A DNA stretch of 64,000 nt from the NCBI GenBank assembly GCA_947626225.1, contig CANQRH010000003.1, positions 35,363-99,362 of the forward strand, written 5' to 3'. The translations under genes and the position numbers were made by a program. Source of the DNA: Candidatus Gastranaerophilales bacterium (GTDB taxonomy: Bacteria; Cyanobacteriota; Vampirovibrionia; Gastranaerophilales; Gastranaerophilaceae). The notes beneath the pieces are model-generated. The model had not been told where the DNA came from. It saw only the letters and a list, made by a program, of their open reading frames with translations, and made no database searches. Shown here piece by piece: positions 2,284 through 47,515 of the stretch (the first letter of the stretch is position 1; each line of letters opens with the position of its first letter).

Positions 2284-3279
2284 ATGAAGAAATTAATTTC
2301 TGTAATTATACCTGTGTATAATGTGGAAAAATATCTTGAGCGTTGTTTGGATAGTGTAATTAACCAAACATATAATAATTTAGAGATTATTTGTGTAAAT
2401 GACTGTTCACCGGATAACAGTATTGAAATATTAAAAAAATATCAAAAACTCGATAGTCGAATAGGGCTTATATCCAACGCTTCGTGTATGGGCCAGGCCC
2501 ATACACGAAGCGTTGGATATCAAAAAGCACACGGGGAATTTATATACTTTCTTGATTCGGATGATTGGATTAAAGAAGATTTCATTGAAAAAATGTACAA
2601 AGCAATTGTTGAAAAGAATCTGCCCGCTGTCTGCTGTACAAACATAAAAAACGTTTATCCCGACGGTACAATGAGCGATTTATTAAAAAGAGATTTTGAA
2701 GAAGGTTTTATGCCTTATACAAAATCTTGTATGATGGCTTGGAGCTGGCTGTTAAAAAAAGATTTTCTTGATAAATTTGATTGCATTTTCCCTTCGGGCT
2801 TAAAATATGAAGATAATTATTTCTATAACGTTTTAATTCGAAGCCTTGAAAATGTCTATATAATTAATTCAACGCAATATTATCACTATGAAAACCCTCA
2901 ATCCACCATGGGAAAAGCAAAAGGCAGAACCATAGACAACTTTGATATAATTGAAGTGATTGATTTAGTCTATGAAAACTATAAAAAAACAAATAAATTA
3001 TCACATTGGTCAATACCGTTTTTTTATATGCCAAAATATATGCTTAACATTCACACAAACAAAGACGAATTTTTCTTAAAGTTAAAAGAATTCTATAAAA
3101 AAATTCAAACTGACGTTATTTCAAATAAACAACTCTATAATCAAATCGAACTCAAGTTTTTTAATGAGATAATAAATTCAAATAACTATAGTGAATATAA
3201 AAAATATCAAACCTCAATAATAGGAGCACTCAGACAAAACGTAAAGGAGCAAAATGGAAGAATTAATCAAAAAGTATAA
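2284..3279 (+). CDS. family 2 glycosyltransferase
   Basis: N-terminal ISVIIPVYNVEKYLERCLDSVINQTY, then CVNDCSPDNS and the DxD motif in YFLDSDD. Confidence 0.85.
   Translation: MKKLISVIIPVYNVEKYLERCLDSVINQTYNNLEIICVNDCSPDNSIEILKKYQKLDSRIGLISNASCMGQAHTRSVGYQKAHGEFIYFLDSDDWIKEDFIEKMYKAIVEKNLPAVCCTNIKNVYPDGTMSDLLKRDFEEGFMPYTKSCMMAWSWLLKKDFLDKFDCIFPSGLKYEDNYFYNVLIRSLENVYIINSTQYYHYENPQSTMGKAKGRTIDNFDIIEVIDLVYENYKKTNKLSHWSIPFFYMPKYMLNIHTNKDEFFLKLKEFYKKIQTDVISNKQLYNQIELKFFNEIINSNNYSEYKKYQTSIIGALRQNVKEQNGRINQKV
2471..2521. repeat. perfect 51-bp palindrome (25-bp arms, 1-nt centre) inside the GT2 coding sequence
   Basis: atatccaacgcttcgtgtatgggcc-a-ggcccatacacgaagcgttggatat. The arms were checked base by base. 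The palindrome encodes ISNASCMGQAHTRSVGY. Confidence 0.95.
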
Positions 3280-4231
3280 TATAGAACCCGTGTTTTACAG
3301 AAGATACTTTCGCTATGGAGCTGAGATGCTCTATGCGTTTTTGCTGCAAAATTTCTTTTTATTTAAAAAAGGAAAATTTCTGAATCCGATTAAGAAAAAG
3401 GAATATTTTGATAAATTATGCCGGGAAGAAATAGTTAATTTCTATGAAAACGGATTTTTGAGAATACCGAAGGTTGATTTTGATATTACAACAAGATGCA
3501 CTCTGAAATGTAAATATTGTTCCAACATGATGCCAAAATTCAGACAAAACGGAAGTCATGTCGAGATGAGTTTTGACGACTTTAAATACATAATCGATGT
3601 TTTGTTTGATTCCAAGGGGGGGGGGCTAAACAGAATCGATATAATTCAATTGATAGGCGGCGAGCCCTTGCTTCATAAGCAGTTACCGGAGATTATAGAA
3701 TACGCAGCCAAAAACGATAAAATAGGAGTTATTAAAATCATCACCAATGCAACGATTTTGCCATCCGAAAAATTAATTGAAACAATAAAAAAATATAACG
3801 ATAAAGTCTATTTTTATATCAGTAATTATTCAACAAACCCCGAGCTTAAAGGCTTATTAAAATTTGAAGAATTTCAAAAGATACTTGACGAAAATAAAAT
3901 CAAATATCAAACGATGCAGGATTTGTCTTGGGACAAGGAGGGCGAATTTAAGGACTATCATTATGACGAACAAACTCTCAAACAGATGTTTGCTTCCTGC
4001 GTTCGATCAAGCTGCCTTTCCATTATCAACAACAAGCTTCATATATGCGCTAAATCCGCTTCGGGAAATGAGCTTGGGTTAATTGATGTGAAAGATTGCG
4101 TAAATTTAAAAGATAATCCTAATTTAAGACAAGATATTATTGATTTTTATAAAAAAGATTATTATGAAGCTTGTAAATATTGTGCGATCAGCGAAGAAAA
4201 AGTTATTCCCGCACAGCAAGTACAGATGTAA
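3254..4231 (+). CDS. radical SAM protein, paralogue 2 (carries a G10 tract, in frame)
   Basis: DFDITTRCTLKCKYCSN, GGEPLLH, IKIITNATILP and a C-terminal Cys cluster (YYEACKYC). Overlaps the GT2 stop by 26 nt. Confidence 0.8.
   Translation: MEELIKKYNIEPVFYRRYFRYGAEMLYAFLLQNFFLFKKGKFLNPIKKKEYFDKLCREEIVNFYENGFLRIPKVDFDITTRCTLKCKYCSNMMPKFRQNGSHVEMSFDDFKYIIDVLFDSKGGGLNRIDIIQLIGGEPLLHKQLPEIIEYAAKNDKIGVIKIITNATILPSEKLIETIKKYNDKVYFYISNYSTNPELKGLLKFEEFQKILDENKIKYQTMQDLSWDKEGEFKDYHYDEQTLKQMFASCVRSSCLSIINNKLHICAKSASGNELGLIDVKDCVNLKDNPNLRQDIIDFYKKDYYEACKYCAISEEKVIPAQQVQM
3616..3625 (+). repeat. homopolymer G10 inside radical SAM paralogue 2 (codons 121-124, aaG GGG GGG GGG cta)
   Basis: Counted directly. 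Paralogue 1 has no tract at the aligned position (LDNVLKLNLINISGGEPLL versus FDSKGGGLNRIDIIQLIGGEPLL). Confidence 0.95.
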
Positions 4232-4392: not shown

Positions 4393-5328
4393 TTATATTT
4401 GTTCCCCGCAAGGCAGATTGTAAATAATATTATCACTATGGCAATAGTGACAAAATTGAGAATAATCTCTTGCATAATATTTTATGAGTTTATCAGTTAA
4501 ATCTTTAGCATTTTTTGCAGTTCTAATATTAACCACTTCTTCTTTTATCCCGTCGGAAAGTTCAAGATTTCTGTTAATATAAACGGAAATAGTGCAAGGA
4601 GTTATTTCACCTTCACATAGCATATTACAAAATAATCCCCAACATTTGTCATGAATAGGTTTAATTTTAGCGGGATCCTGAATGTCTTTATATAGTTCCG
4701 GCATGCTTTGAAAAAGGCCGTCAAAACCGTGAGGATTTGAATATGATATATTGTTTCTGATTAACAAATCCTTAAATTCATTATGTTTTACGGTAATGCC
4801 ATTTTTAATATTTTTTACGTTATTATAATTACTTATTTGAATTTTAAACTTTTTATTCTTCATAACTTTTAAAAGCTCATTTGAAGGCAAAATTGTGCAG
4901 TTTGAAGCAATGAAAACATGTTTAATCTGTCTTTTATTAAGTGCATACTGAACTTTTTTTGCAAGATTGTTATCTATAAGCGGTTCTCCGCCTACGAAAC
5001 CAAAGTAATCAACATAATCTACCGACTTTAACAATTTATCCAAATCCTTTTTAAATTGTTCAAAGGAAGTGTGCTTTAAATGAGTCTTATCATTAAAATA
5101 CGGAATAAAAGTATTACACTGTTTACAATTCATGGTGCATTTGGTAGTTACAACATATTCTAAACAAGGTATAACAGCTTTTCCGGTGAGAAAAAATCTC
5201 GTTTTTATAACTTTATAATATAAACGTTCAGGGGAAAATTTCTTCAGAAAATTTACAAATTTTAATTTAAAAGGGAAAGCAACTGCACAACCTTGGCCTG
5301 CAGTAAAATTTTTATATATTAATTTCAA
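4393..5328 (-). CDS. radical SAM protein, paralogue 3 (the listed ORF starts at TTG; the likely true ATG at 5368 is out of frame across an A9 tract)
   Basis: VVTTKCTMNCKQCNT, GGEPLID and a C-terminal Cys cluster (YSQFCHYC). See the tract at 5333-5341 and the SD/ATG at 5366-5385. Confidence 0.75.
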   Translation of the reverse strand: MKLIYKNFTAGQGCAVAFPFKLKFVNFLKKFSPERLYYKVIKTRFFLTGKAVIPCLEYVVTTKCTMNCKQCNTFIPYFNDKTHLKHTSFEQFKKDLDKLLKSVDYVDYFGFVGGEPLIDNNLAKKVQYALNKRQIKHVFIASNCTILPSNELLKVMKNKKFKIQISNYNNVKNIKNGITVKHNEFKDLLIRNNISYSNPHGFDGLFQSMPELYKDIQDPAKIKPIHDKCWGLFCNMLCEGEITPCTISVYINRNLELSDGIKEEVVNIRTAKNAKDLTDKLIKYYARDYSQFCHYCHSDNIIYNLPCGEQI

Positions 5329-8740: not shown

Positions 8741-10177
8741 ATGCTTACATTTTTAACAGGAATATTAATTTTATTTTTTGGATATATCTTTTATTCAAGA
8801 TATACGCAGATTCAATTTGGCATTTCTGATGAAAAGACACCTGCCGAAAGAATTAATGACGGAGTTGATTTTGTTCCGTTGAGTGAAAATAAAAACATGC
8901 TTATACATCTGCTCAATATAGCAGGGTTAGGGCCTATATTAGGTGCTGTACAAGGAATATTATTCGGCCCTGTCGCTTTTATATTAATACCTTTAGGCTG
9001 TATTTTTATGGGCGGTGTCCATGATTATTTCAGCGGTATGCTTTCCGTACGTAATAACGGTGCTCAAATTACGGAATTAATTAAAAAATATTTAGGAGTG
9101 GGATATTACAGATTTTTTATAATAGTTGTATCCGTAATGCTCCTTCTTTTGGCTTCCGTGTTTGTTTATACGGCAGGTGACTTGATGTCTGAAAGATTTT
9201 TTAATCAAACGGATTTCTCTTTGTCTAATCCTATTGTTACTTCTATATATATTATTATTGCTTTATATTATATTTTTGCAGCTTTGTTCCCTATAGATAA
9301 AATAATCGGCAGATTCTATCCGGTTTTGGGCTTCTTATTACTTATCGGAACCGGACTTGTTTTAACGGGATTTTTTATCCACGGTATACAACTTGAAAAT
9401 ATTGATTTTGCTAATTTGAATAAACATCCTTCTTTAATACATATAATTCCGATGTTTTTTATGACAGTAAGCTGCGGATTGTTATCGGGATTTCATTCGA
9501 CGCAGTCTACTATAATTTCACGTACAATTAAAGATGAAAAACAAGGCAGGCATGTATTTTACGGTATGATGTGTGTTGAATCTTTAATAGCTATGATTTG
9601 GGCGGCTGCTTCTATGCATGTTTATTCTATGAATATTGTTCCTTCTAACCTTGTAGGAAGTGTTAATGTTATAAATACAATTGCCGATGTATTTGTATTC
9701 CCTTGTCTTGCCTTCATTGTAACAATTGCGGTGGTTGTTCTTCCTATTACTTCGGGGGATACTGCTCTTAGGGGACTTAGAATGATATTGGGCGAGGCTT
9801 TTAAAATGCCGCAGGTGAAAATAAAAAACAGATTGCTTATTATGATTCCTATTTCCTTGATAATTATTTCCGTTATCGTTTGGGCGAAATCGAATGCCGG
9901 CAGTTTCTCGGTTGTTTGGCGTTATTTTAACTTTGTTAATCAGTTAATAGCTATACCAACCTTTTTATATGCTACGGTTTATCTTTATAAAAATAAGAAA
10001 AATTGGTTGATGACTTTTATCCCCGGGCTTTTTTATATTTTTATAACCGTATTTTTTATTTTAAATTCAAAAATCGGATTTAATATTGATTATACTGTTT
10101 CTAAAATATGCGCAATAATCGTAACTTTAATTTCAATATTTGTAATTTATTTCGCAAAACTAAAGAAGCCTGAATAA
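8741..10177 (+). CDS. cstA: carbon starvation protein CstA-family transporter
   Basis: TPAERINDGVDFVP...NIAGLGPILGAVQG...GGVHDYFSG matches the CstA N-terminal signature. The protein is polytopic. Confidence 0.7.
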   Translation: MLTFLTGILILFFGYIFYSRYTQIQFGISDEKTPAERINDGVDFVPLSENKNMLIHLLNIAGLGPILGAVQGILFGPVAFILIPLGCIFMGGVHDYFSGMLSVRNNGAQITELIKKYLGVGYYRFFIIVVSVMLLLLASVFVYTAGDLMSERFFNQTDFSLSNPIVTSIYIIIALYYIFAALFPIDKIIGRFYPVLGFLLLIGTGLVLTGFFIHGIQLENIDFANLNKHPSLIHIIPMFFMTVSCGLLSGFHSTQSTIISRTIKDEKQGRHVFYGMMCVESLIAMIWAAASMHVYSMNIVPSNLVGSVNVINTIADVFVFPCLAFIVTIAVVVLPITSGDTALRGLRMILGEAFKMPQVKIKNRLLIMIPISLIIISVIVWAKSNAGSFSVVWRYFNFVNQLIAIPTFLYATVYLYKNKKNWLMTFIPGLFYIFITVFFILNSKIGFNIDYTVSKICAIIVTLISIFVIYFAKLKKPE

Positions 10178-10206
10178 TATTAAATCATATCTTTTAAAGC
10201 GTAGTA

Positions 10207-10243
10207 TTTTAATATTGTCGGTTTAGTAAAACCGACCTACAAA
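10207..10243 (+). repeat. palindromic intergenic repeat, copy 4
   Basis: ttttaatattgtcggtttagtaaaaccgacctacaaac. Confidence 0.8.
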
Positions 10244-10257
10244 CTCAGTACGATTGC

Positions 10258-11073
10258 TTAATCACATTTATGCTTACCGTTCCAACTTAAATTATTGCAT
10301 TTTAAATAATCCATATTTTCATTATAAATCACCCATGCACTGCAAGCCAAACCATTCTTAGTACCATTATTATTTCCAAGACAACTTCCCTCAAATGAAA
10401 ATGTTGTTTCGTTTGTTGTTCCACAAGGAATGATACTATGTTCGGTTAAATAAAACAGAAAAATATCTTTTGAATAAGTATTTGGTGGTTTTGTACCATT
10501 AACATCATAAACTATATTAGCGTAAACCCGGGATAATTCTCCGTTTCCGCGACTGCTCGCAGCAGCATTTGATAAAACGGAAGAAACAATACCTATTGAA
10601 CTTCCGTCGGCAAGCAATGTTGATGCGTATTTATCAAAGTTTTTATCTTCATCACCATTAAGATAATATACCTTTTCAAAACCGCATGCTGTATGATTTT
10701 TAGAGTTATTGCAAATATTCAGTTTTTTTACATTTTTTAAAACCCTGTCACGAATTAGTATTGCGTTTACTGCATTATATGTTTCTTCATTATCCCAATT
10801 TTCATCCACTCTTCCTGCATCCCTCCCTGTAATCCCCCATTCGCCTGCCGTTCCGTAATCCAAAATCGCAAGCTGATACGCATTAGATAAAGTAGTGTAC
10901 ATTTTTTTGACTTTTGAAACTATAACTTTCTCTTTGTAATCTGAAATTAAAGTCGGAATAGTCAAAGCTGCAACCACACCGATTATACCGAGTGTGATTA
11001 AGACCTCTGCTAAAGTAAATGCTGTCCTTGGGGTTAAATTGCAGCCTAAATAATGCTTACGGGGGGGGGGCAA
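10258..11073 (-). CDS. prepilin-type N-terminal domain protein (pilin/pseudopilin-like) with a poly-C tract at its 5' end
   Basis: FTLAEVLITLGIIGVVAALTIPTLI class-III signal and hydrophobic helix. The listed ORF starts at TTG with no SD. The SD/ATG at 11094-11108 is out of frame (see tract). Confidence 0.75.
   Translation of the reverse strand: MPPPRKHYLGCNLTPRTAFTLAEVLITLGIIGVVAALTIPTLISDYKEKVIVSKVKKMYTTLSNAYQLAILDYGTAGEWGITGRDAGRVDENWDNEETYNAVNAILIRDRVLKNVKKLNICNNSKNHTACGFEKVYYLNGDEDKNFDKYASTLLADGSSIGIVSSVLSNAAASSRGNGELSRVYANIVYDVNGTKPPNTYSKDIFLFYLTEHSIIPCGTTNETTFSFEGSCLGNNNGTKNGLACSAWVIYNENMDYLKCNNLSWNGKHKCD
11061..11070 (-). repeat. homopolymer C10 (G10 on the + strand) in the 5' coding region of the pilin-like gene
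   Basis: Minus strand reads ATG TTT AAG AAA ATT ATT TTC CAT TGC CCC CCC CCC GTA AGC ATT ATT TAG. C11 or C8 would join ATG 11096 to the pilin frame. Confidence 0.95.
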
Positions 11074-11130
11074 TGGAAAATAATTTTCTTAAACATATGT
11101 TTACCTCCGATTAACTGACTTTGTAAGATT

Positions 11131-11159
11131 ATTATATATTACTCTATGTGTTTTGTCAA
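11131..11159 (-). promoter_or_regulatory. exact-consensus sigma70 promoter TTGACA-N17-TATAAT for the pilin-like gene
   Basis: Minus strand TTGACA at 11159-11154 and TATAAT at 11136-11131. GGAGG SD at 11108-11104, 7 nt before ATG 11096. Confidence 0.6.
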
Positions 11160-11229
11160 GTAAAGAATCGATTTTGCATTTTGAAAAAAAGAATGTGCTG
11201 ATAGAATAATATTCCCCTAAAAATAATAA

Positions 11230-12813
11230 TTAAGTATTATATACGGATTTTACAAGTTCTTTTTTCTGTTTTTCAAGTTTGTTTTCTCTTGCTTTACCTC
11301 CGAGAAGCTGGTAAGCGCAAGCAGTCAAAGTTTCACTGCACCCCTGAGTTGTAAATGCGGCTGATGCTATCAGAGCGGACGGATGCGTAAGAAGTCCGGT
11401 TGCCCCGAGTGTAAATCCTAAGACGGGATCGCTTGTGGGACCGGTTGCTATACCATGCCACTTCCCGCTGTATGCCTCATACTTCATCATATTTTCATTT
11501 GCATTTTTAAAGGTATTATCTTCTTTATCAATAATATTCTTTTTAACCAATTTGTTTCCGTTTTGCCCGAATAAAAATCTGGTACCTGCCATAGATGCCC
11601 AGCTTGAACCTGATGTACAAGATGCTACAACCATACCGAAAAGTCCGGCCATTGCAGCGAATTTCCCGCCCTTAACCAGTCTTTTCCCGAGTGAGGGTGC
11701 AAAAGCTTTTCTTAAACGATTTACACGCTCAAGAGTTCCGGCGTTTTTTGCCGCTTCCAAACGGTAATTTTTTACGAATCTTCTGGCTTTTAAAACATCT
11801 CTTGCATTTTCATATGTACCTGCAATCATAAAGCTTGTACCGATTCCGGCAATAGCACTTATTGCGGCGAGAATGCCGGCTTTTGCATTACCGAAACATT
11901 CCTTATCCTGAAAATAATCCTTTGCGGCGCCGGACATATCATCAACACTTCCGCTTAAAGTACTTAACAGTATTGGTGCAACGGAAAGCAGTAATGCCAT
12001 ACCTTTCTTGCCCTTAATCCTTGATTTAATATCGCTGAACGGATTTACCCAGCCTATTTTCATTTTGCTTAATTCTTTTTGCTCGGCTAATAACTGTGCC
12101 GGATTGTGAAGTGCTGCCTTTCTTTCTTTGTATGAAGATAATACTTCTTTTACACCGAGTATTCCCAAAACGGAAAGAAGAAGCGGAACTACTTTCTTAG
12201 AATCATTCCCCGCATCTGACAATTCCAAATGCTCCAGTTCACCCTGCGCAAATTTTAATGTATTATCTTTTAAATCTTTATTTTCCTGCTTTATAAACTC
12301 CGCCAAATCCGGTGAAATTTCATTCAATTCATCAAGAGTATTCTCATCAGGATTGAGAATATCATAAGTTTTATTCTGATAGCTTAAAGTTACATTATAA
12401 TAGTTATCAAACAACTCCTTTAATTTTAAGATTTTTTGTTTTTCTTCATCAGATATTTTCATTTTCCCGACTCTGTCGGCCACGGCTGCTTTGTCCTGAG
12501 AAAGCAGTTTGAACATATCTTTAACTCTTGCTCCGTAAATATTAACCCTGACAAATTTTAATAATTGTTTGAATTCCTCCGAATATTCTTTCGGGCTTGA
12601 TACATTGATAGAGGCACCTTCAGGAAGAACACTGCCGGCCTTTCCTTCCAGATATTCTTTCAAGAACATATTTGATTTGCCGTTAGTTTCGTATTCTCCG
12701 ATATCACTAAAGTCAAACAATAATTCGTTCCCGACTTGTGAATTATTTTTGCTGCCTGATATTTGGGTACGCTCAATATTACAAGACGGCGTACCGTCTA
12801 TCTTTATTGACAT
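11230..12813 (-). CDS. hypothetical membrane protein with Gly/Ala/Ser-rich hydrophobic segments, divergent from the giant gene
   Basis: Soluble N-terminal half, then segments such as VVPLLLSVLGILGV, GMALLLSVAPILLSTLSG, GILAAISAIAGIGTSFMIAG and FAAMAGLFGMVVASC. Confidence 0.6.
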   Translation of the reverse strand: MSIKIDGTPSCNIERTQISGSKNNSQVGNELLFDFSDIGEYETNGKSNMFLKEYLEGKAGSVLPEGASINVSSPKEYSEEFKQLLKFVRVNIYGARVKDMFKLLSQDKAAVADRVGKMKISDEEKQKILKLKELFDNYYNVTLSYQNKTYDILNPDENTLDELNEISPDLAEFIKQENKDLKDNTLKFAQGELEHLELSDAGNDSKKVVPLLLSVLGILGVKEVLSSYKERKAALHNPAQLLAEQKELSKMKIGWVNPFSDIKSRIKGKKGMALLLSVAPILLSTLSGSVDDMSGAAKDYFQDKECFGNAKAGILAAISAIAGIGTSFMIAGTYENARDVLKARRFVKNYRLEAAKNAGTLERVNRLRKAFAPSLGKRLVKGGKFAAMAGLFGMVVASCTSGSSWASMAGTRFLFGQNGNKLVKKNIIDKEDNTFKNANENMMKYEAYSGKWHGIATGPTSDPVLGFTLGATGLLTHPSALIASAAFTTQGCSETLTACAYQLLGGKARENKLEKQKKELVKSVYNT

Positions 12814-13014: not shown

Positions 13015-16000
13015 ATGGGATTCGACGACTTTTTTATAAGCAGTAACGGTAAAAAGGAACAGTTGAATAATGCAAAACATGGTGTACGAAGAGAACAGGT
13101 TGACAAAAAGTTCCACAATCTATTTGATGCATATGATATGAATGGTGACGGAACACTTGAAAGCGAAGAATTAGGCGGAGTATTTAAAGGTTTAACGAAA
13201 TATGCGGGATCAGATAAAACGCTTGATTGTACGGAAAATAAACAAGTTGCAAATCTTTTTGTAACTCAAGCAGGCATAGAAGATGCAGACTTTATGGGAT
13301 TTGTCCGTTCAGTTACGCAAGCGGCAGAAGATATTGTTGATTCAAAAGAGACCCCAACCGCTGACGGCGGGAAAGAAGTGACAACAAGATACAAAGACGG
13401 CACAGTCGAGACAATTTCTTATTATCCTGACGGGGGATACAAATTCAAAAAGTTGGAGCAAAAAGGTTCAACAACAACTAATTATTATACAATAGGTAAT
13501 AATTTAGATAAACATTATACTGTTGATGAGATAGAAAGCAGAGTAAAGGAAGCATACGACAGACGTGTTGCGGAAATAAAACAACAAGCTAAACAAAATT
13601 CGGGAATAGAAGGTCGTGGCATTATTCCAATTATACCGAACTATGAAGAATTTAAAAAAGGATATTTGCAGCACTTCAATATTAATTTGGGTAGTGACAC
13701 AAGGAACTTTGAAAGGCACGATTTTGAATTATCCGAACGAGGAAAGTCAGACATAGCGGTTCGTGATTTTGTATTAAATCACTATGTGGAAACGCACAAA
13801 GCTGCTCAAGCAGCACTTGAGTCAATGGGTATTTTAGACGATGTCGGTGCGGCAATAAATGCGGGAGCCGGTGAACTATGGAATACCATTAAAAATGTAT
13901 GGAAAGGAACAGACGAAGAATACCAAAACTTTTATGAATTATCTAAAAAATTTGAGCCGAACTACAACAAAGCATTAAGAGAAAGCGGCAGCTTGGATGT
14001 AATGAGAAGTAAACCCGAAATGTATTTCAGGGATTTTGAAACTGATTTCAAAAAAGATATGGGTCGGCAATACAATTTAGAAAATTCAGTTCAATTCCAA
14101 CAAAGTGCAGAACGATACCAAAATGCTCAAATATTGAAACAGAGAATTGATATTTTAAACAAAGCAATGCAAGAGATTAGGATGTATCAATCAGAGCAAG
14201 ATGCACTGACTTATGCACCGGCCCAAAATGAAGGCTTAAATCCTGCAAGTCATATTATAAGTGCGAACAAATTACTTTTACAATATTTTGATAACGATCA
14301 GGAAGCTGTAGATATGCTTCTTAACGGAGCGATAGGGAATACTCAATCCGTAATAACAGCGATAAAAGGTCTTGCATCAGATACACAGAAGATGTTTGAT
14401 TCGGTAACAGGCGGTAAAAGTTTTGATGAAATAAAGAATGATTACCAAACACAATACAGAGGGATATACGGAACGGATTTAGTACCGGACGAACTGACAG
14501 AAAAAGTAATGGATGCGAAAGCCACGGGTGGGATGTTAAAACTGGCGGCAATAACCGTAATATCCGTTTTAATTACAAAGAGTCCCGTAATGGCAGAGCT
14601 TTCAGCGGCTGCAGGGAGTGCGGAAGCAACGGGAGCGGCGGCAAATTTAGTGAGAACTCTGGTTACAAAATATGGTCAAACGGCAGTACAACAGGGTATA
14701 AAATTTGCAATGACCAGCGGAACTCTGGCCACGGATGTTGGATTGACTTTATTAAACCAGGCAACAAGTGAACGCGGCATAAATGGTGAAGAACTATGGG
14801 AAAGTACCAAAGGTTCAGCCAAATATATATTCTTTGGTGCATATGTAGGTGCGCCTTTGGCACAAGGAGTTTCAAAGGCTCTCGGAAAGGTAGGAGCAAC
14901 CGGAAGATTATTTGAAGGCGGGACAAAAACAGCCAACGGGGCAATTCAAACAACAAGCATCACGGGAGATAAATTAATACAAAACTTTATGAAAGGCGGC
15001 AATAAAGTTCTGACAACAGGCGGTGCGTTTTTGACGGATGTAGCGGCATTTACGGGTTTAGAAGTAGCAACAGAGGGAGCGAATTTAAAAGATGCCCTTT
15101 CAGAACAGGGACAAATGCTTTCTAAGTTAAAATTAATGAACCACGTATTAGAATATATGCTTGGTGCTAAAGCTCATACTGCAACATCGAGAGCAAATAT
15201 AGATGCGGCAATTGAGAAATCCGGAGTAAAGAATTGGAATATAAAAGAGATAAAGACACCGCAAAATACTCAATATGTAGTAGATATAGACGGATTACCG
15301 GTGGGTAAATTTGAAGATGCAAACCAACTAGCTGCGGCAATGCTTGAAAGAGTAACTGCAAACTTTAAAACACCACAGTCATATGAATTAAATGATAAAC
15401 CTGATGAACCGATAGCGGAAGTTAAGCCTGAAACAACACAAACAACGACTGAATCTCATATAGATGCAAATGGCAGATTAGAGAAAGGCTATATTATAGA
15501 TAAGAGAAGCAATCAACCGATAAAAGTTGATACGGAAAATCTTCAAATTGAAAAGAACTCAGCAGTACAAGGCAAAGTTGGTTTTATTAGTATAAGTGAT
15601 AAATTTGGTAATTCTCTGGGAAGTGTTTCATATAACTTAGTGGAAGTTGATGGGCAGAAATCTCTACATTTTGAAGGTTTAGTTTCTAATGTAGAGGGTG
15701 CCGGAATTGGAAGCAGATTAATCCAGGAGTTAACGTTAGTAAGCAGAGACCTGGGTGCAGAAGGCAGATTAACTGCAAGTGCAAGTCCATCGGCTAATAG
15801 GGGTGGTAAACTTACAAATATTGAATTCTATTATAAATTAGGATTTAAAGCTGTTGATCCTGCTAAGGATGCAGCTATCAGAGAATATATAGAAAGAGGT
15901 GAAGAGGTTCCTCTTCAACTTAATATATTTACCGATATTGAGCTAAATCCTAAATTCTCAAAAATTAACAAAATAAAAGGTATTGATGAATTTTCTTCAC

Positions 16001-19000
16001 TGGTTACGAACTGCAAAAATCTAAGTGACGAAGATTTAAGCAATTTGTATATTTATTACAAAAATTACGAACAAGAATGTATCAAGAATAATGAACAAAT
16101 TCCGGACATGAAACAATCCGGCTTTGACAAGTTGATGGAAGAGATTAATGCCAGAAAAATTGACATAAAAGATTTGACCAATCCTGCGGTTGAGCCGCCG
16201 AAAACAGGAGTAAAAACTGAAGTAAAAGAAGATAAGCCTGTTGCCCGAATAAATACGGGTGCATCTGAAATGCAAGAAGCTGAAATGATAAAAAGATATA
16301 ATGAGTTACAGGAAGAATCACAAAAAACAGGAGTGGTTAGCGAAGAATTACTTGCTCTTACATTGGAACTGAATGACAAAGGATATCATTTTAAAGATGG
16401 AAAATTAGATTTTAGTTATAATGAAAATCAAACAAATATGCCGAATTCTGATGTTTCAAAAGCAGAATTTATAAAAAAATTAAAAGAATACGGTATTGAT
16501 GAAATAGCTCTTGAATCCCTTGAATATAATGTAAATCGTATCAATATGAATCTTTTAAATGAGTTAAAAGATTCTCCTGAACTTTTAAATTCAACTTTTG
16601 GAGTTAATATACTTTGTGATGTAAAACCTGAAGATGAGCCGGCAAAAATTGAGGCATTTAAGCTGCTTAAAGATGTTGAGTTATTATCTCCCGACGCAAA
16701 AATTTTAATGATTAATAAAGCCCGAAAAGATAACTTGGATGCCGTTAAACAAAATATTGAAGATTTCAATTATATTAAAGCGTCAGGTATAGATCCGTCA
16801 TTAATTTCCGAATACGGACTTGCTATGACAGTAGATAATATGCATTTTAATCGGGAAATGTTTGATTTACTGAAAGACAATGCAGAATTTGCGGATAAAC
16901 CTTACCTGTCTTTTAACGTAAATCCGGAGGATATTCCCGCAAAGACTGAAATTTATAATTCATTAAAAGACAACAGTTCTTGTCCTATTGAACAGAAAGT
17001 TTCTATTCTTAAAAGATGCAATAAAGACAATTTATCCAAAATAAAAATGGTTGAATCGTACAGAGCCGATGGAATGAATGAACGCTCATTAAAAAATTTA
17101 TATAAGAAATTAGATGATATTGACGAGAATACATTAGCCGCTGTTAAGGATAATGCAAGTTTACTCGATTACTATGAAGTTTCAGATATTATGGACATTA
17201 AACCTGAAGATTTATCTGCAAAAGCGAAAATCGCATCAGAGATGTTCTTATTTTCATTAAAACAAGATAGTAAAATAGCTCAAGAATTAATCAAACAGAC
17301 AACTAAAGATAATATTGAAACAATCCGCAAAAAAATGGAGATGATACAAGCATTTTCTCCATTTACAATAACACAATACGGTTTTGTAAAAAATGATGTA
17401 ATTAGTGACATTCAAAACGGTTCTATTGATGTTGATGTTGTATCAGATTTATTTAAAACAATTAAAAATGATACTGAATTATTAAAATCCATTTCTTCAA
17501 ACAAAGATTTAAAAATTCTTAAAGGTGTAACCGCTGAAGATGTAAAAGCTAAAAAAGAAATGTACGACTTTATGTTATCACAAGCTGAAAAAAGAATGTC
17601 GAATAGTAAATCTAATCTTTCAAACTTAGACAAAGCAGATATACTAAGCAGAGTTACACGAGATAATATAGCTGAAATTAAAGAAGAAATTTCTCTGGAT
17701 TATAGAATTGCTGAGGCTAAAAGCTTGGAAGAACCGCAATTCACACAAAAAGAAGAGCTTTTGCGTAAAAATAAATTAAGAACAATAAATGAAAGTATTG
17801 ATTTGCAGCAACATTTATCATTTGATGAGAAAAATCAAATAAAAGCATTATTTGAAAATGCCAAAACAATGGAAGAATTGGATGCTAAAAGTAATGCATA
17901 TACAGCTATAGTAAATAAAGGAGATGGATATTTATGGTCATTAGGTGATCTTCCAAAAACATTGGATGCAATAAAAATTAAAGAACAAGCAGATGTTATT
18001 GATGCCATTGGAATAGATAACACAAGTTATTTTGACGGTATTTTATCCGAAAATTTTGCAAGAAATTATAAATACTTAAAACAAGTTGATTCTTCATTTA
18101 GACCTGTAGGAGCAGGTATATTCAATCGTTATGCACATTATTTAAAATTTGATGATATTAAATCACAAGAAGAATTTGAAATGTTTAAAGAACTTTGGAA
18201 TGATCCAAAAATTAATAATAGTTCAGTAATATCCCGAATTGTTTCTGATAAAAATAAATATAATGCATACAAAAAGCTTGCATCACATCCTGATTATTTA
18301 AGAATGAATAACGAAGATATCTCTCTTGTTATCAACGCCATCCTACACGGTAAAGTTTCGGATATAACTGATGTTAACAGTATGGCTAAAGATTTAAGAA
18401 TACAAAACATACAAAGCGAATTAAAAGAATACAGATATGATTTGACTCGTGAGAGATACAATTGGGAGAGCCCCGCAACTGAAGAAGACATACAAGGTTT
18501 AACCGGTACTTTCCCTAATTTGAATAGAGCAAAATTTGAAAATTATACAGGAAATACTGTTAAGACTATTCGGGAAGTAATTCAACGTAATACAAATCTT
18601 TCCTTCAACGAAATTGAATCTGTATTAAACAGTGATGTTGATTTTTCAAACTGTGATAAACGTGATTATGTATTGAGCAAATGCTCTCCTGAAATTGCAT
18701 TTAGATTAGCATTCTGTAAAGATGAAGATTTTAATAAAGTTGTAGATGTTCTTGAAAAACGTCCTGAAATGCTTTTAGAAAAATTTGACAGTTCAAGTTT
18801 TGATAAAATGCTCAAAATGTCAGACAAAGAATGGGAAAACTTTAAAGTTTCAATCAAAGACAGAGGTGAAACTGAATTTAACGAAGCTCAATATGCCGCA
18901 GATATTCAGGCTAAGTTAGATGCAGGCTTTGAGCTTGATATGAGTACATACAGAACAATTGAGAGACAAAGAAGATTAGAAGCAAACAGCAGATTAGGCG

Positions 19001-28261: not shown

Positions 28262-31200
28262 TTATGCGTAATATTTTCTGTACAAACGATTTCTTGCTTC
28301 GGTATCAAGTTCAATAATTCTTTTTGCTTTTGCGGAAAGGGAAGTTTCGGGACGTGTTTTTTTCTTAGATTGTTCTGTATTGGATTGATTCATTATACCC
28401 ATAACACCGCTTACAACGTTCATAGCTTCGCCCGTTGTTTCTAAAATTTTATTCAATTTTTGACGTCTTTCAGATTTAATCTGAGCCTTACTTTTCTCTG
28501 TTTTAGAAGAATCGGGTTTCGTATTTTTAAGTTCATCGTCCGTTTTATTATCTGTTGTATCAGTAGGCTGTTGATCAACTTTTTCGCTATCGCCTATCGG
28601 TGCTTTTTCATTTTTCTCTGTAATATTCTGTTGTTCGTTATTTTGATTGTTTTGCGGATTATCGCCCGTTGAAGCTTCCGGTGCTTTGATAATATCTTCT
28701 GATGTTGTCTCAGATACTGCAGGCTGGTTGTTATTTGTCTGATTGTTAGCTGCATTTTGAAGTTCCTGTTGAGCCTGTGCAACTTCTGCAGGTGACATGC
28801 CTGTTTTATCGGAAAGTTCAACAATTTTATTTTCACTTGTTTTTGCTATAGATGCTGCTTCTTTTACGGCCGGCGAATTAGCGTCCGTATTAACAACGTT
28901 ATCCGGAATATTTGAATTGTCGTTTTTCGTTTCATCTTTTTTAGCATTTTGAGTTTCTTTGTTTTTCTTCGCTTCAGCTTTTTCTGCCTCTTTATTTTTC
29001 TTCGCTTCGGCTTTTTCTGCTTTTTTAGCTTCTTTTGATGACTGCTTTTCGGTTTCAGTTTTGTCTTTACCTTCAGTTTTGTTGCCGTCATTATTTTCAT
29101 CACCGTTATTTTCACCGTCATTGCCTTCGGCATCAGAGCCTTTAGGTCCGCTCATTAACGAATATGCACTTGATGCAAGGCTCATTGCTCCGCCTACCGT
29201 GCCTAAAATGTTTGCAATTTTTTCATTTCCGCCGAATTCGCTCATCAATTGGCTGGTAGATGACATTGCTGTACCGACAACACCTGCGATTTGCATAACA
29301 CCGTTCATACCGCTTTGTATACCGCCTGCAAGACTGCCTGCTGCTCCTGTTATTGATTGTGCTACACCTGCAACAGTAGCAATTTTACTCATTATACCGT
29401 TAGCTTCTTTACCTTGAACTGCTCTGACATTGTTTACCATTTGGGCTGTATTAGATACAATGCTAAGTCCCTGAGTAATACCTGTCATTACAGGTCCCAT
29501 AGCTGCTCCGGCACCTGTTACTGAAGTTGCTACGGATAATGCGGTAGATGCCAATCCCATCAATGCGCCGGCTAAATTACCGTTAGCAAGGTTAATTATG
29601 GCTTTTGTAACTCCGCATGCCGCTACACCTATTGTACCGACATTTATTAATATCGCACCTGCTGATGAAATAGCGGCACCGGCTGCTGCCGTAAACGGGT
29701 TTGATAATAATGGCGGAGCAATAATCTCAACCATTATCGTACCGGTACTGAGGGTAATATTGAATATGTTTTCCTGAATACCGACAATGCCTAATTGTTT
29801 TGCAAGTTTTTTCTGTTTTTCCTGCTCTTTCTTTTCGGCTTCTTTGATTTTTTTATCTCTGATTTTATTTTTCTTTTCAAATTGTTTATATCTTTTGTTA
29901 TTAGTTTTTTGTAAATTTTTCAGTTTTGCTTGATTTTTGGTAACTTTGCTGTTTGAAATTGTAAATTGATTAGCAAGCATTTCAATTTCCATGCCGTTTG
30001 CCTGCAATTCCTGTTCATGATTTGAACCACCGCCTGCCTGCATGGAAAATCCCGATGCAGCAGCCTGCTGACCGTTCATGGAAGCACCGACAGCCTGAGC
30101 ACTTGCGCCTGCAGCTTCATCTTCAGCCATCATTTGTTCATTAGCGGTTGAAAGTTCTTCATAACGGGCAAGCATTTCAGCTTGTTTTTTAATTTCTTCT
30201 TCAGATTCTTTATTAAGTTTTTCAATTTCTTTCTGATCCTTCTTCATTTCTTTTTCTAACTGCTTAGATTCTTTAAGAAGGGTTTTTTCATCTTTTTCGG
30301 TGTCGGATAATACTTTTTCGGAATCATTGGCGCTTTCCTGACCGTCGGCTGCAACATCGTCTACTGTATCTTGAGCTTTGTCGGTATCCATATTTTCTTC
30401 TTTATCTTCTTTTTTGGTTTCACCGGTTGAATCATTTCCGCTCAGATCACCGACTTCCTGAGTTGCATCTTGTGAATCTTCAACGGCATCATCAGGATTT
30501 TTTTCAGCTTCGGTTGTCGATACTTCGGCTGTTTCATCACCTGCATCCTGTGCTTCTTCAATCTCTTGTTCAGCATCCTGCGGTTCGGCAGATTCTGTAC
30601 TTTCAACAACTTCAGCAGCTTCATCAGTGCCGACAGGAGTATCAGCCGCAACAGCAACGGCTGTTCCTTCTTCCGGAGCAGATGCTGTTGTCATTGTCGG
30701 TGCTGCGGTTGTACCGGTTGTTACGGCTGCAGAGTCTGTAGTTTCACCTTCTGCCCCCGCTGCCGCTTCAGTCGGTTCGCCTTGAGCTTCTCCCGTTTCT
30801 TCGCCTTGTGCATTTTCTTGCATTACGTCTTCTGATTCTTCGCCGGTAACTACGGACATTTTATCTTTTACCGCGCTTAACGAATCTATTGCCCCAGGAA
30901 TTGCTTCTCCGGCTTTTTTAACCGAAGCATCAGCTTCATCAACCATTGAATCATCATCTGATACCACCATTGCCGCAGTACCGATAGCTATACTGATGAA
31001 ACCTTTCATTATCGTTGCTATACCGAGATTTATCAGCGCGATGGCATGTCCGTAAGCAAACGGTACGGAAAGTAATGCCATACCCATTTGATTTAACATG
31101 TTACCGAATTCTACCGTTCCGCCGCCTATCATTATCAAGGTTCCGCCGCAGTTGTTAATAAACTGCATTCTTTCGTTGTAATCAGGAATTTCTTTTTGAG

Positions 31201-32944
31201 CCAGCTGTTGATTAGCTTCAAAGTTTCCGGCTTCTTCACCGATTTTGGTATCAATAGTATTGATTTCTTTTGATAAACCGGAAGTTGTATCAGCTTTATC
31301 CTGAACGGTTTCCTGCTGAATTTCGGCAATACGTGCATTGTTGGCTACGATAATTTCTTTTTGCTGTTTAATTTTTTCTTTTGTTTCATCGTCGTATTCG
31401 GGTTCTTCTTCATCTTTGTCTTTTTTACCCTGAATAATCTTTTTGTCAACTTCTTCAGCGGACATACCGGTTATATCTTCGAGTTCTTTTGTAGCTTTTT
31501 CATTTTCTTTTTCAAGATTTGCAATTTCTTCCTGACGGACAGCTTCTCTTTCTTCAAATTCACCGATAACCTTAGTAACAATTTTATCGACAGTTTGTGC
31601 AATTTTAGTATCCTTTTGTCCTGCAAGTATAAATTTCAACTGTTCTTTTATCATTGCTTTTGATTCTTCGTTTATCGCATTTGCTTCATCTATCAAACGA
31701 AGAACACTTTCATCAGTTACAACGAATGAAGTCTTTTCTTCTTTATTTTCTGTACTGTCTTCCGCATTTTCATCGCTTCCTTCTGCAGCGCCTTCCTGCA
31801 TTTCAACTTCTTCTCCTTCGCCTTCAATCGTTTCAGCGGAGCCGACCTTGATATCAAGAACTTCTCCGATATCCATTGCCGAAGCTTGTGATTCTTCCAT
31901 GTATTCTTTCGTATCATTACCTATTTTGACTGAATCATTAGCAAGAGATTTACCCTGAATCATTGCGACAATTGCTCTGAAAAATCCGATTTGACCTGCT
32001 ACTTCTTGGCGGGTGTGTTTACGATTTGTTTTAGAAATGTAATAAGTAAGTGTATCACCTATTTCAACAGTTTCATCGGCAAGTTTTTCACCAAGTGCCG
32101 CAATAATATTTATTTCGGTCAGTTTGTTTGAAAGTTCAGTATCGTTAAGTTTCATGCCTTTGTTGTCATCTTCTTTGGCATTCAACTGTTTTGAAAGTTC
32201 TTCATAACGTTTGCTTTCGCTGTCACTCAAGGCATTGCCGTTGTTGATTTTATCCTGAAGCGACTTCCATTCTCTTACCATACCTTCGTATTCTTCAAGT
32301 GAACTTCTGATATCTTTCTGATTTTCCTGAAAAGCTTTTTTCTTCTTTTCCTGTTCGGGTAGAATTTCTTGAATTAAGTCATCAACTTTTTCGTTTGTTT
32401 GTTCACATTCTTCAATATTTTTCTTTGCTTTAGGGATAAGAGCTAAAAAGGGTTCTTTTTCCGTAGGTTCTTCGGCATTTTCATCCGTTTCCTCAGCACT
32501 GTTAATATTTGCTCCGGAAGATTCATAAATCGTATGAGCGATGTCCAAGACATCCTGAGGAATGCACACACCTTCATTTTCCATTTGAATAATTTCTTCA
32601 GCGGAATATTGCGCCCATTGGGGATCCATAATTAAGCCGTTTTCTTTGGCATAAGCATCAAGCGTATATTTTATTTGATTTAAAACATTTTGTACATCAG
32701 AATAATTGATGATGTATTCACCGTCTTCATTTAAATAACCTTCCAATTCCAAGCCGTAGCCTGAAGGTACAACTATATTATAACCCGTTTCATCCTTGTA
32801 ATATTGCTCAAACTCACTCTTTTGCTTATCATCCATATTCTCGTAAAGAGTCAAAGCATCATCATACGAAATCTTTTTACCGTATATTTCAAGGTAAAAA
32901 TTTTGAAATATTTCAAATTTGTTTGGTATTCCGCTGATTGCCAT
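28262..32944 (-). CDS. large (1560 aa) hypothetical protein with coiled-coil/acidic low-complexity regions and two Gly/Ala-rich hydrophobic blocks
   Basis: Uninterrupted 4.7-kb ORF. Blocks CGGTLIMIGGGTVEFGNMLNQMGMALLSVPFAYGHAIALINLGIATIMKGFISIAIGTAAMVV and IIAPPLLSNPFTAAAGAAISSAGAILINVGTIGVAACGV...GGAMSLASSAYSLMSG. Long E/K/D/T-rich stretches. Confidence 0.8.
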   Translation of the reverse strand: MAISGIPNKFEIFQNFYLEIYGKKISYDDALTLYENMDDKQKSEFEQYYKDETGYNIVVPSGYGLELEGYLNEDGEYIINYSDVQNVLNQIKYTLDAYAKENGLIMDPQWAQYSAEEIIQMENEGVCIPQDVLDIAHTIYESSGANINSAEETDENAEEPTEKEPFLALIPKAKKNIEECEQTNEKVDDLIQEILPEQEKKKKAFQENQKDIRSSLEEYEGMVREWKSLQDKINNGNALSDSESKRYEELSKQLNAKEDDNKGMKLNDTELSNKLTEINIIAALGEKLADETVEIGDTLTYYISKTNRKHTRQEVAGQIGFFRAIVAMIQGKSLANDSVKIGNDTKEYMEESQASAMDIGEVLDIKVGSAETIEGEGEEVEMQEGAAEGSDENAEDSTENKEEKTSFVVTDESVLRLIDEANAINEESKAMIKEQLKFILAGQKDTKIAQTVDKIVTKVIGEFEEREAVRQEEIANLEKENEKATKELEDITGMSAEEVDKKIIQGKKDKDEEEPEYDDETKEKIKQQKEIIVANNARIAEIQQETVQDKADTTSGLSKEINTIDTKIGEEAGNFEANQQLAQKEIPDYNERMQFINNCGGTLIMIGGGTVEFGNMLNQMGMALLSVPFAYGHAIALINLGIATIMKGFISIAIGTAAMVVSDDDSMVDEADASVKKAGEAIPGAIDSLSAVKDKMSVVTGEESEDVMQENAQGEETGEAQGEPTEAAAGAEGETTDSAAVTTGTTAAPTMTTASAPEEGTAVAVAADTPVGTDEAAEVVESTESAEPQDAEQEIEEAQDAGDETAEVSTTEAEKNPDDAVEDSQDATQEVGDLSGNDSTGETKKEDKEENMDTDKAQDTVDDVAADGQESANDSEKVLSDTEKDEKTLLKESKQLEKEMKKDQKEIEKLNKESEEEIKKQAEMLARYEELSTANEQMMAEDEAAGASAQAVGASMNGQQAAASGFSMQAGGGSNHEQELQANGMEIEMLANQFTISNSKVTKNQAKLKNLQKTNNKRYKQFEKKNKIRDKKIKEAEKKEQEKQKKLAKQLGIVGIQENIFNITLSTGTIMVEIIAPPLLSNPFTAAAGAAISSAGAILINVGTIGVAACGVTKAIINLANGNLAGALMGLASTALSVATSVTGAGAAMGPVMTGITQGLSIVSNTAQMVNNVRAVQGKEANGIMSKIATVAGVAQSITGAAGSLAGGIQSGMNGVMQIAGVVGTAMSSTSQLMSEFGGNEKIANILGTVGGAMSLASSAYSLMSGPKGSDAEGNDGENNGDENNDGNKTEGKDKTETEKQSSKEAKKAEKAEAKKNKEAEKAEAKKNKETQNAKKDETKNDNSNIPDNVVNTDANSPAVKEAASIAKTSENKIVELSDKTGMSPAEVAQAQQELQNAANNQTNNNQPAVSETTSEDIIKAPEASTGDNPQNNQNNEQQNITEKNEKAPIGDSEKVDQQPTDTTDNKTDDELKNTKPDSSKTEKSKAQIKSERRQKLNKILETTGEAMNVVSGVMGIMNQSNTEQSKKKTRPETSLSAKAKRIIELDTEARNRLYRKYYA
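28957..29022 (-). repeat. 2 x 33-bp tandem repeat inside the 1560-aa gene (encodes KEAEKAEAKKN twice)
   Basis: + strand ctttgtttttcttcgcttcagctttttctgcct / ctttatttttcttcgcttcggctttttctgctt. Confidence 0.85.
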
Positions 32945-46810: not shown

Positions 46811-47515
46811 ATGGGAATTAAAAAGAAATTTGGGTTCACTCTGGCGGAAGTTTTGATAACCTTAGGGATAATCGGTGTAGTGGCAGCATTAACTATACCT
46901 GCTTTGATTAACAATTATCGTGCTGTTGAAATGAAAACAAGATTTGACAAAGCTTATTCCGTTATAAGCCAAGCTTTTGAACTTATGAAAATTGATAATG
47001 AAGGATATGTTGACGGAAGAAATTATTCCGGACAAACATTTGTTCCTGTTTTCCAACGGTATTTTAAAACCGTACAAGCCGGACAGGTAAACTATGCTAA
47101 AGGTTTACCAACCTACAGAAATTTTGCCGGAAATGCGAATTTCAATCAATATTTTCTTGATGACGGTACTTTGCGCCTGGCTGACGGAATATTAATTTTT
47201 ATTGAAAATCCTTTTATATATGCTGATACTCAGTATAACGCTCATGTTTATATTTTTGCGGACATTAACGGTCTTAAAAAACCGAATATGGCAGGGAAGG
47301 ATTTGTTTGGATTTCAGGTTACCGATAACAAACTTATTCCTATGGGAGCAAATGACAATGCCATTCAAAAAGACAGTTATTTTGGTAACGGCACTTCCGG
47401 AAATGATGAGGATGATTGGTGCAATGAAACAAGTAAATCCCCATATAACGGGTTAAGCTGTACTTATAAAGCACTTAATGATAAAAATTATTTTAAAAAA
47501 ATATTCAAGAAATGA
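46811..47515 (+). CDS. prepilin-type N-terminal domain protein (pilin/pseudopilin-like)
   Basis: MGIKKKFG|FTLAEVLITLGIIGVVAALTIPALI. Start moved to ATG 46811, giving a short basic leader and G at -1. The listed ORF starts at 46736. Confidence 0.8.
   Translation: MGIKKKFGFTLAEVLITLGIIGVVAALTIPALINNYRAVEMKTRFDKAYSVISQAFELMKIDNEGYVDGRNYSGQTFVPVFQRYFKTVQAGQVNYAKGLPTYRNFAGNANFNQYFLDDGTLRLADGILIFIENPFIYADTQYNAHVYIFADINGLKKPNMAGKDLFGFQVTDNKLIPMGANDNAIQKDSYFGNGTSGNDEDDWCNETSKSPYNGLSCTYKALNDKNYFKKIFKK

Follow-up and report, generated by a model that had tools for sequence, protein, structure and literature searches.

Phase variation through changes in the length of homopolymeric tracts is a hallmark of host-adapted pathogens, among them Neisseria, Campylobacter, Haemophilus and Helicobacter. 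The pilC1 and pilC2 genes of Neisseria, which code for a pilus-associated product, carry a poly-G tract in the region encoding the signal peptide, and the gain or loss of a single nucleotide switches their translation. In Campylobacter jejuni, poly-G tracts are found in the capsule, LOS and flagellar glycosylation loci. Type IVb pilins such as TcpA and BfpA have a leader of about 13–25 residues, a Glu at position +5 and a hydrophobic α1 helix.

Here, we describe a type IV pilin-like locus found on the minus strand of a 64-kb stretch of DNA (36% GC; referred to throughout as the window) from a Candidatus Gastranaerophilales bacterium, which carries a run of ten C residues (C10). As in pilC1 and pilC2, the tract is a G/C homopolymer in the leader region, after the start codon and before the sequence of the mature protein. 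PilC, however, is exported by the Sec pathway and acts as a tip adhesin and assembly factor, whereas the gene in the window encodes a prepilin and the tract is located in an extension of its class III leader; moreover, there are two pilC genes in Neisseria but dozens of paralogues of the pilin gene in a Gastranaerophilales bacterium. The closest parallel for this multiplicity is with the opa genes of Neisseria, also a multi-copy surface family in which every member has a separate repeat in the leader region and can switch independently, and just as most opa copies are OFF at any time, 29 of the 31 pilin loci surveyed here are OFF. Yet, the opa repeat is a pentamer, CTCTT, in some 4–11 paralogues coding for outer-membrane β-barrels, and not a homopolymer in genes for pilin-like proteins. 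With the contingency genes of C. jejuni, the locus shares G/C tracts of about 8–11 nucleotides in a low-GC genome otherwise devoid of G/C runs, and the surface-glycan tracts of that organism are paralleled by two other runs in the window, G9 and G10, in radical-SAM genes located beside GT2/DUF4422 genes. C. jejuni, however, has no type IV pilins, and both the site in a pilin leader and the scale, within one family, are specific to Gastranaerophilales. Finally, the protein resembles type IVb pilins in its long leader (26 residues in the ON form), which is long here only because it houses the tract, and in the Glu at +5, but its head domain, DUF6613, is unrelated in sequence, the residue at +1 is Phe, as in type IVa pilins, and that at −1 is Ala. 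By analogy, then, the locus would work like pilC, with a paralogue logic like that of opa and tracts like those of C. jejuni, while belonging to none of those gene families.

Results

Anatomy of the locus

The features of the locus are the following (↓, predicted cleavage site):

11154–11159, minus strand: −35 hexamer TTGACA, a consensus match
11131–11136, minus strand: −10 hexamer TATAAT, separated from the −35 by a 17-nt spacer
11104–11108, minus strand: Shine–Dalgarno (SD) sequence GGAGG, with a 7-nt spacer to the ATG
11071–11096, minus strand: ATG (11096–11094) and the N-terminal peptide MFKKIIFH(C), running into the tract
11071–11073, minus strand: TTG, the sole in-frame start of the pilin ORF at C10, abutting the tract
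11061–11070, minus strand: poly-C tract, C10 (G10 on the plus strand), the OFF length; C11, the ON length, is found in L005/L091
11046–11048, minus strand: TAG ending the ATG frame at C10, after 16 codons
11023–11060, minus strand: linker, ..RKHYLGCNLTPRT, stop-free in the pilin frame and part of the 26-residue ON leader
10960–11022, minus strand: prepilin (class III signal) motif A↓FTLAEVLITLGIIGVVAALT, with Glu at +5
10258–11073, minus strand: pilin-like ORF of the DUF6613 family, 271 residues from the TTG and 279 residues if fused to the ATG

A first-pass annotation of the window had described a promoter, an SD, an ATG and a C10 tract ahead of a prepilin ORF that is out of the ATG frame and reachable only from a TTG devoid of an SD; all the coordinates proved correct, on the minus strand, and a frame check bore out the relation between the two frames. 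The promoter, TTGACA-N17-TATAAT, matches the consensus at 12 of 12 positions and is the top scorer across the 1.8 kb scanned (9800–11600). From the ATG, the reading is ATG TTT AAG AAA ATT ATT TTC CAT TGC (C)9 GTA AGC ATT ATT TAG, and at C10 the ATG at 11096 and the pilin ORF (10258–11073) are in different frames. The TTG at 11073–11071 has no SD at a proper distance, the GGAGG being located about 31 nt upstream. By frame arithmetic, a tract of C11 or C8 joins the ATG to the pilin ORF; the leader of the resulting ON form would be the 26-residue MFKKIIFHCPPPRKHYLGCNLTPRTA, ending at the predicted Ala↓Phe cleavage site, with PPPRKHYLGCNLTPR as the leader-linker peptide and FTLAEV... as the predicted mature N-terminus.

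Homopolymeric tracts across the window

The C10 tract is not an accident of composition, because the window contains three G/C runs of at least nine nucleotides (387–395, 3616–3625 and 11061–11070) against 0.046 expected, and 200 Markov simulations averaged 0.04 such runs and never exceeded 1. Other than these runs, of 9, 10 and 10 nucleotides, G/C runs in the window reach a length of 5, with none of 6–8.

The two other long runs, G9 (387–395) and G10 (3616–3625), lie on the plus strand inside paralogous radical-SAM genes (293–1231 and 3254–4231) that belong to a GT2/DUF4422 glycan (glycosyltransferase) cluster. They occupy non-homologous positions and both are in frame as GGG codons (..HRGGGAV.. 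and ..SKGGGLN..); neither changes in length between the window and a second assembly, L005 (see below). It is plausible that G9 and G10 are contingency tracts currently ON. A/T runs of eight or nine nucleotides also occur (A8 seven times, T8 four times, A9 and T9 once each). The A9 run (5341–5333, minus strand) comes right before the end of a mini-ORF with an SD and an ATG at about 5368 (MNKTEYKNFKKK, then a stop), which A8 in place of A9 would fuse to a third radical-SAM ORF (4393–5328, otherwise TTG-started). The site may be subject to slippage or phase variation, or may represent a simple frameshift. We have not retained A9 as a fourth contingency tract, as its length is unexceptional in this AT-rich composition, although its position is suggestive. 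The first proposal of four SSR contingency loci in the window is thus only partly right: beside the C10 tract, G9 and G10 are plausible candidates, in frame and hence ON in genes of the glycan cluster, and unchanged in L005, while the A9 run is not statistically exceptional.

The gene encodes a type IV pilin-like protein

The pilin ORF scores 18.7 bits against TIGR02532 (cut-off 16.3) and 19.5 bits against PF07963, just below the cut-off of 21.2. A homology search returned 7,933 relatives, nearly all with PF20318 (DUF6613) and the N-methyl motif, the best of which is 65% identical over the full length (E = 5e-98). Four cysteines (C129, C138, C267 and C278) are invariant and two others (C239 and C252) nearly so. 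Homology places the window protein in the DUF6613 (PF20318) pilin-like family of Gastranaerophilales, its own PF20318 evidence consisting of a precomputed match rated only as "weak" and not listed by hmmscan at E ≤ 0.01. The nearest loci are almost all from Candidatus Gastranaerophilales or Melainabacteria MAGs recovered from the guts of animals and humans, some of which go under the erroneous names Brachyspira sp. CAG:484 or Clostridium sp. CAG:967.

In the AlphaFold (AF2) model (pLDDT 84.9), a disordered leader is followed by a 53-residue helix (residues 29–81) and a β-sheet head. The modelled shape, a long N-terminal helix followed by a β-sheet head, would be the general shape of a pilin. 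A fold search of the PDB returned no significant match for the head domain, the top match, to the gonococcal pilin 1AY2, being non-significant (E = 0.32; TM 0.23/0.37). Both the Ala at −1 and a leader of about 26 residues had been regarded as odd in the first-pass annotation. Among 120 homologues, however, the residue at −1 is Ala in 100 and Gly in 18, so that Ala is the rule and not an oddity of this protein, and a leader of this length is typical of the tract-bearing paralogues, in which the linkers span 14–179 nt; the tract-free paralogues have short leaders, MKK(A/G)↓FTLAEV. The window pilin lacks both a Gly at −1 and a short basic leader (it has Ala, and 26 residues in the ON form), departures that are family-typical, and on the basis of the motif and of the predicted architecture it qualifies as type IV pilin-like.

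No genes for a prepilin peptidase or for pilus assembly were found in the 64-kb window; pilA, B, C, D and T are reported from a Gastranaerophilales genome (PMC5877343). A second prepilin-like gene, at 46811–47515 on the plus strand, codes for a DUF6613-type paralogue with a short leader (MGIKKKFG↓FTLAEV); it has no G/C tract and is presumably not phase-variable. In addition, a 592-residue protein (56911–58689, minus strand) combines a prepilin motif, SAFSLAEMMVV, with YadA-head repeats and a Peptidase_S74 domain (an intramolecular chaperone), an architecture that, judged from its domains, appears to be that of a pilin-anchored adhesin. Three large ORFs (13015–22689, plus strand, 3,224 residues; 28262–32944, minus strand, 1,560 residues; and 11230–12813, minus strand, 527 residues, which adjoins the pilin gene) have no significant Pfam match, the sole trace being a sub-threshold EF-hand in the 3,224-residue protein.

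C10 and C11 alleles

The 90%-identity cluster of the window pilin has two members, the 271-residue form called from the TTG, and a 279-residue protein, P0121 (MFKKIIFHCPPPRKHYLGCNLTPRTAFTLAEV...), which is the predicted C11 fusion and whose DNA, L005, is from ENA assembly ERZ27249462. Over 20,840 bp, L005 differs from the window by one SNP, at position 11110, and by one indel, an extra C that turns the tract into C11. The first-pass annotation had predicted that C11 or C8 would yield a fusion and had proposed a comparison with orthologues; a near-identical assembly indeed carries C11 and an intact fused gene, and this allele encodes precisely the predicted protein (P0121, MFKKIIFHCPPPRKHY...TA↓FTLAEV).

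The contrast between C10 and C11 is one between two short-read ENA assemblies from one study, at about 6× coverage, and because of this coverage and of the SNP only some 40 nt away, the difference is possibly a local consensus error. The SNP itself, which precedes the SD by 2 nt, may be a coincidence, may mark a local error zone, or may reflect elevated mutation near the G run. On the other hand, the G9 and G10 runs of the radical-SAM genes are in frame and show no difference between the two assemblies, which argues that G10 runs are not systematically miscalled. C10 recurs in at least five other samples or runs (ERZ27249467, ERR10663698, -699, -700 and -701), all from one study. A scan of JGI metagenomes with the tract flanks, TTTTCCATTG N6-18 GTAAGCATTATT, gave eight matches, all due to chance and none with poly-C.

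In a sequence from another study (L094; Logan DRR848748), the 527-residue neighbour of the pilin gene (11230–12813) is encoded identically. This sequence diverges wholly from the window about 45 nt past the stop codon of the neighbour, just upstream of the pilin promoter (about 11190–11230 in the window); it seems that the pilin cassette is absent from, or replaced in, this strain, or else that the contig is chimeric.

The layout recurs across the pilin family

We surveyed, at the DNA level, 80 related loci from species-representative genomes, totalling 273 kb and containing 82 pilin motifs. A G/C tract of 8–12 nucleotides (mostly 9–12) is present upstream of the motif in 31 of the 82 pilin genes (about 40%), at a distance of 14–179 nt (median 73 nt). 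In all 31, an SD and an ATG are found 20–84 nt upstream of the tract, in a frame that is open into the tract, and the linker that follows is free of stop codons in the pilin frame (31/31) but only in 5 of 62 cases in the other two frames. This position accounts for 31 of the 40 G/C runs of at least eight nucleotides in the 273 kb, with four more located 260–340 nt upstream of the motif. The peptides that precede poly-C tracts are also alike in paralogues (M..EALRIA/C-PPP-EK), and the window peptide, MFKKIIFHC-PPP-RK, fits this pattern. The recurrence of the layout, together with the open linkers, points to a conserved, translated design and not to a local accident.

Two of the 31 loci are ON, 21 need an additional nucleotide, as does the window with C10, and eight need one nucleotide less. 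The proportion of ON loci is far below the one third expected by chance (P = 4.6e-4), a deficit that could be due to selection for the OFF state, as with gonococcal opa, to a mutational bias toward lengths of 9–10, or to another route of expression.

Tract length varies at related loci

Five independent assemblies from the human gut carry, at one related locus, tracts of G11, G12, G12, G13 and G15, in flanks that are 100% identical over 250 nt upstream and 900 nt downstream (19–24× coverage where stated); a long, ATG-initiated protein results from G12 and G15 but not from G11 or G13. A second related locus differs between strains, with ATT-C9 (ON, 26×) in one case and ATTG-C10 (OFF) in the other. 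N-terminal variants are also seen inside single 90% clusters (GGGG/GGGGG, GGG/GGGG and APPPEK/APEK). At the level of sequence, such variation in length is what slipped-strand mispairing at hypermutable tracts would leave behind. We also considered P0098 (323 residues) and P0131 (259 residues) as an ON/OFF pair, but both have C10; the gap in length between the two is due to an upstream indel and to a start placed by the gene caller inside the promoter/SD region, and hence the pair is not evidence for tract variation.

Discussion

The locus in the window joins a consensus promoter and an SD-preceded ATG to a pilin-like ORF across a poly-C tract; the length of this tract is polymorphic between near-identical DNAs, and the layout is conserved across the family. 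Three features (a repeat longer than expected, a position at which a change in length toggles the frame, and polymorphism in length) would qualify it as an SSR phase-variable locus. We consider it very probable that the poly-C tract is a slipped-strand, homopolymer-length, phase-variation switch acting on the translation of the pilin-like gene, as the first-pass annotation had suggested; the C11 allele, the recurrence of the layout in the family and the variable tracts in otherwise identical loci all support this reading. The promoter would drive transcription, and translation would begin at the SD-preceded ATG and pass, after a few codons, into the tract. At lengths of C11 or C8, the ATG would be in frame with the pilin ORF, giving a 279-residue preprotein whose 26-residue leader would be removed by prepilin peptidase at Ala↓Phe. 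With C10, as in the window, the ATG frame would end after 16 codons and no pilin would be made, or only traces, from the SD-less TTG. Slippage during replication, by one C in either direction, would flip the state of the gene, heritably and reversibly. We infer the slippage mechanism, its rate and its reversibility, and likewise the effect on the protein and the cleavage of the leader. Since a separate G/C tract is found at this position in about 40% of the DUF6613 paralogues, each of these could switch independently.

Could the out-of-frame arrangement be, instead, the normal state of these genes, with the pilin produced by programmed −1 ribosomal frameshifting, or by slippage of RNA polymerase, on C10/G10? 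The prevalence of out-of-frame loci (29 of 31) would be in line with recoding, as would the fact that 21 of them, the window included, need one additional nucleotide, amounting to a −1 shift of the ribosome; homopolymeric C or G also conforms, formally, to the slippery sequence X XXY YYZ. Yet, the frame relation is not fixed (+1 in 21 loci, −1 in eight, in frame in two), the length of the tract varies in the DNA between identical loci, and in-frame alleles exist. Moreover, the RNA 3' of the tract is unstructured, no stimulatory structure being found downstream of it (z = +1.21), and the linkers are unrelated between paralogues. Slippage in transcription is documented mainly for A/T runs, which we also count against recoding. 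As the main mechanism, recoding is very unlikely, although slippage on the tract possibly allows a leaky, low level of expression. Errors in the sequence or decay of the gene could also be invoked: the C10 could be a homopolymer sequencing or assembly error, as the two ENA contigs have a coverage of only about 6× and homopolymers of ten are error-prone, or the gene could be a pseudogene with a fixed frameshift. However, C10 is found in at least five independently assembled samples and the G9/G10 tracts of the same assemblies are in frame; downstream of the tract, the ORF has no interruption and is conserved (65% identity to orthologues, over the full length); and the layout recurs across many species, in 31 loci, with tract lengths that vary in assemblies of 19–26× coverage. 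Either an artefact or decay therefore seems highly improbable.

Another alternative is constitutive translation of the pilin, starting at TTG 11073; the ATG mini-ORF would then be unrelated, or would code for a regulatory leader peptide, and the tract would merely encode Pro-Pro-Pro. The TTG is in the pilin frame at C10 and is the start used by gene callers, and a TTG or a GTG abuts the tract, in frame, at five other C10 loci (P0135, P0084, L062, L080 and L073). At four others (L008, L015, L079 and L103), however, the TTG is out of frame, and the paralogues with a G tract have no such start. The G that precedes the tract is accounted for by the Ala (GCC) or Cys (TGC) codon of the ATG-frame peptide. 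In addition, the TTG has no SD in a usable range, whereas the ATG lies 7 nt from a GGAGG and downstream of a perfect promoter, and the C11 allele fuses the ATG and the pilin exactly. Constitutive translation from the TTG is, in our assessment, possible but very unlikely.

The reading of the tract as a phase-variation switch can be extended to the lineage. On a tentative view, which we regard as possible but somewhat doubtful, Gastranaerophilales would have a pilin "phasome", with dozens of DUF6613 paralogues in each genome of about 2 Mb, each with a G/C tract in its leader, mostly OFF and biased to be one nucleotide short of ON, and with one or a few displayed at a time, possibly with some leakage through slippage on the tract. 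If so, an uncultured commensal would possess a combinatorial surface-variation system of the opa or var type that is based on type IV pilins. Full-text literature searches found no paper linking Melainabacteria or Gastranaerophilales to phase variation or to homopolymeric tracts, and no paper that mentions DUF6613; phase variation in Gastranaerophilales, and tracts in the prepilin leaders of about 40% of a large pilin family, thus appear to be undescribed, although the mechanism is of a well-known kind and therefore not categorically new. What the window would add is the same device, at the scale of a family, in an uncultured, non-photosynthetic, cyanobacterial relative from the gut. This suggests that these commensals are under strong and fluctuating selection at their surface, for example, from host immunity, through phage receptors or in adhesion niches. 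There are also practical implications, in that gene callers mis-annotate these pilins, placing the start at a TTG or at an internal Met, or giving them a spurious long N-terminus, and in that the length of tracts in metagenomic reads could report on the dynamics of populations within a host.

The tract may not control all paralogues alike, because some of them, but not that in the window, also have a canonical MKK start beside the motif. In several proteins (P0004, P0010, P0029, P0032, P0054, P0060, P0062 and others), a second, degenerate N-terminal motif is found in the leader or linker, with the pattern (A/G)FTLAEGATHVA...RK.AFTLAEV, also seen at locus L045 (1453–1533); this duplicated motif may be the footprint of recombination between paralogues at a conserved 5' end. 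Finally, the long linkers, such as those of loci L008, L016, L085 and L103–L107 and of proteins P0089, P0098 and P0107, often contain a conserved segment that encodes ..CYTSD(V)MHH..IKKK.., and the DNA of this segment (TGTTATACTAGTGAT) resembles an extended −10 promoter element, which hints, from sequence resemblance, at a second, tract-independent promoter in some paralogues.
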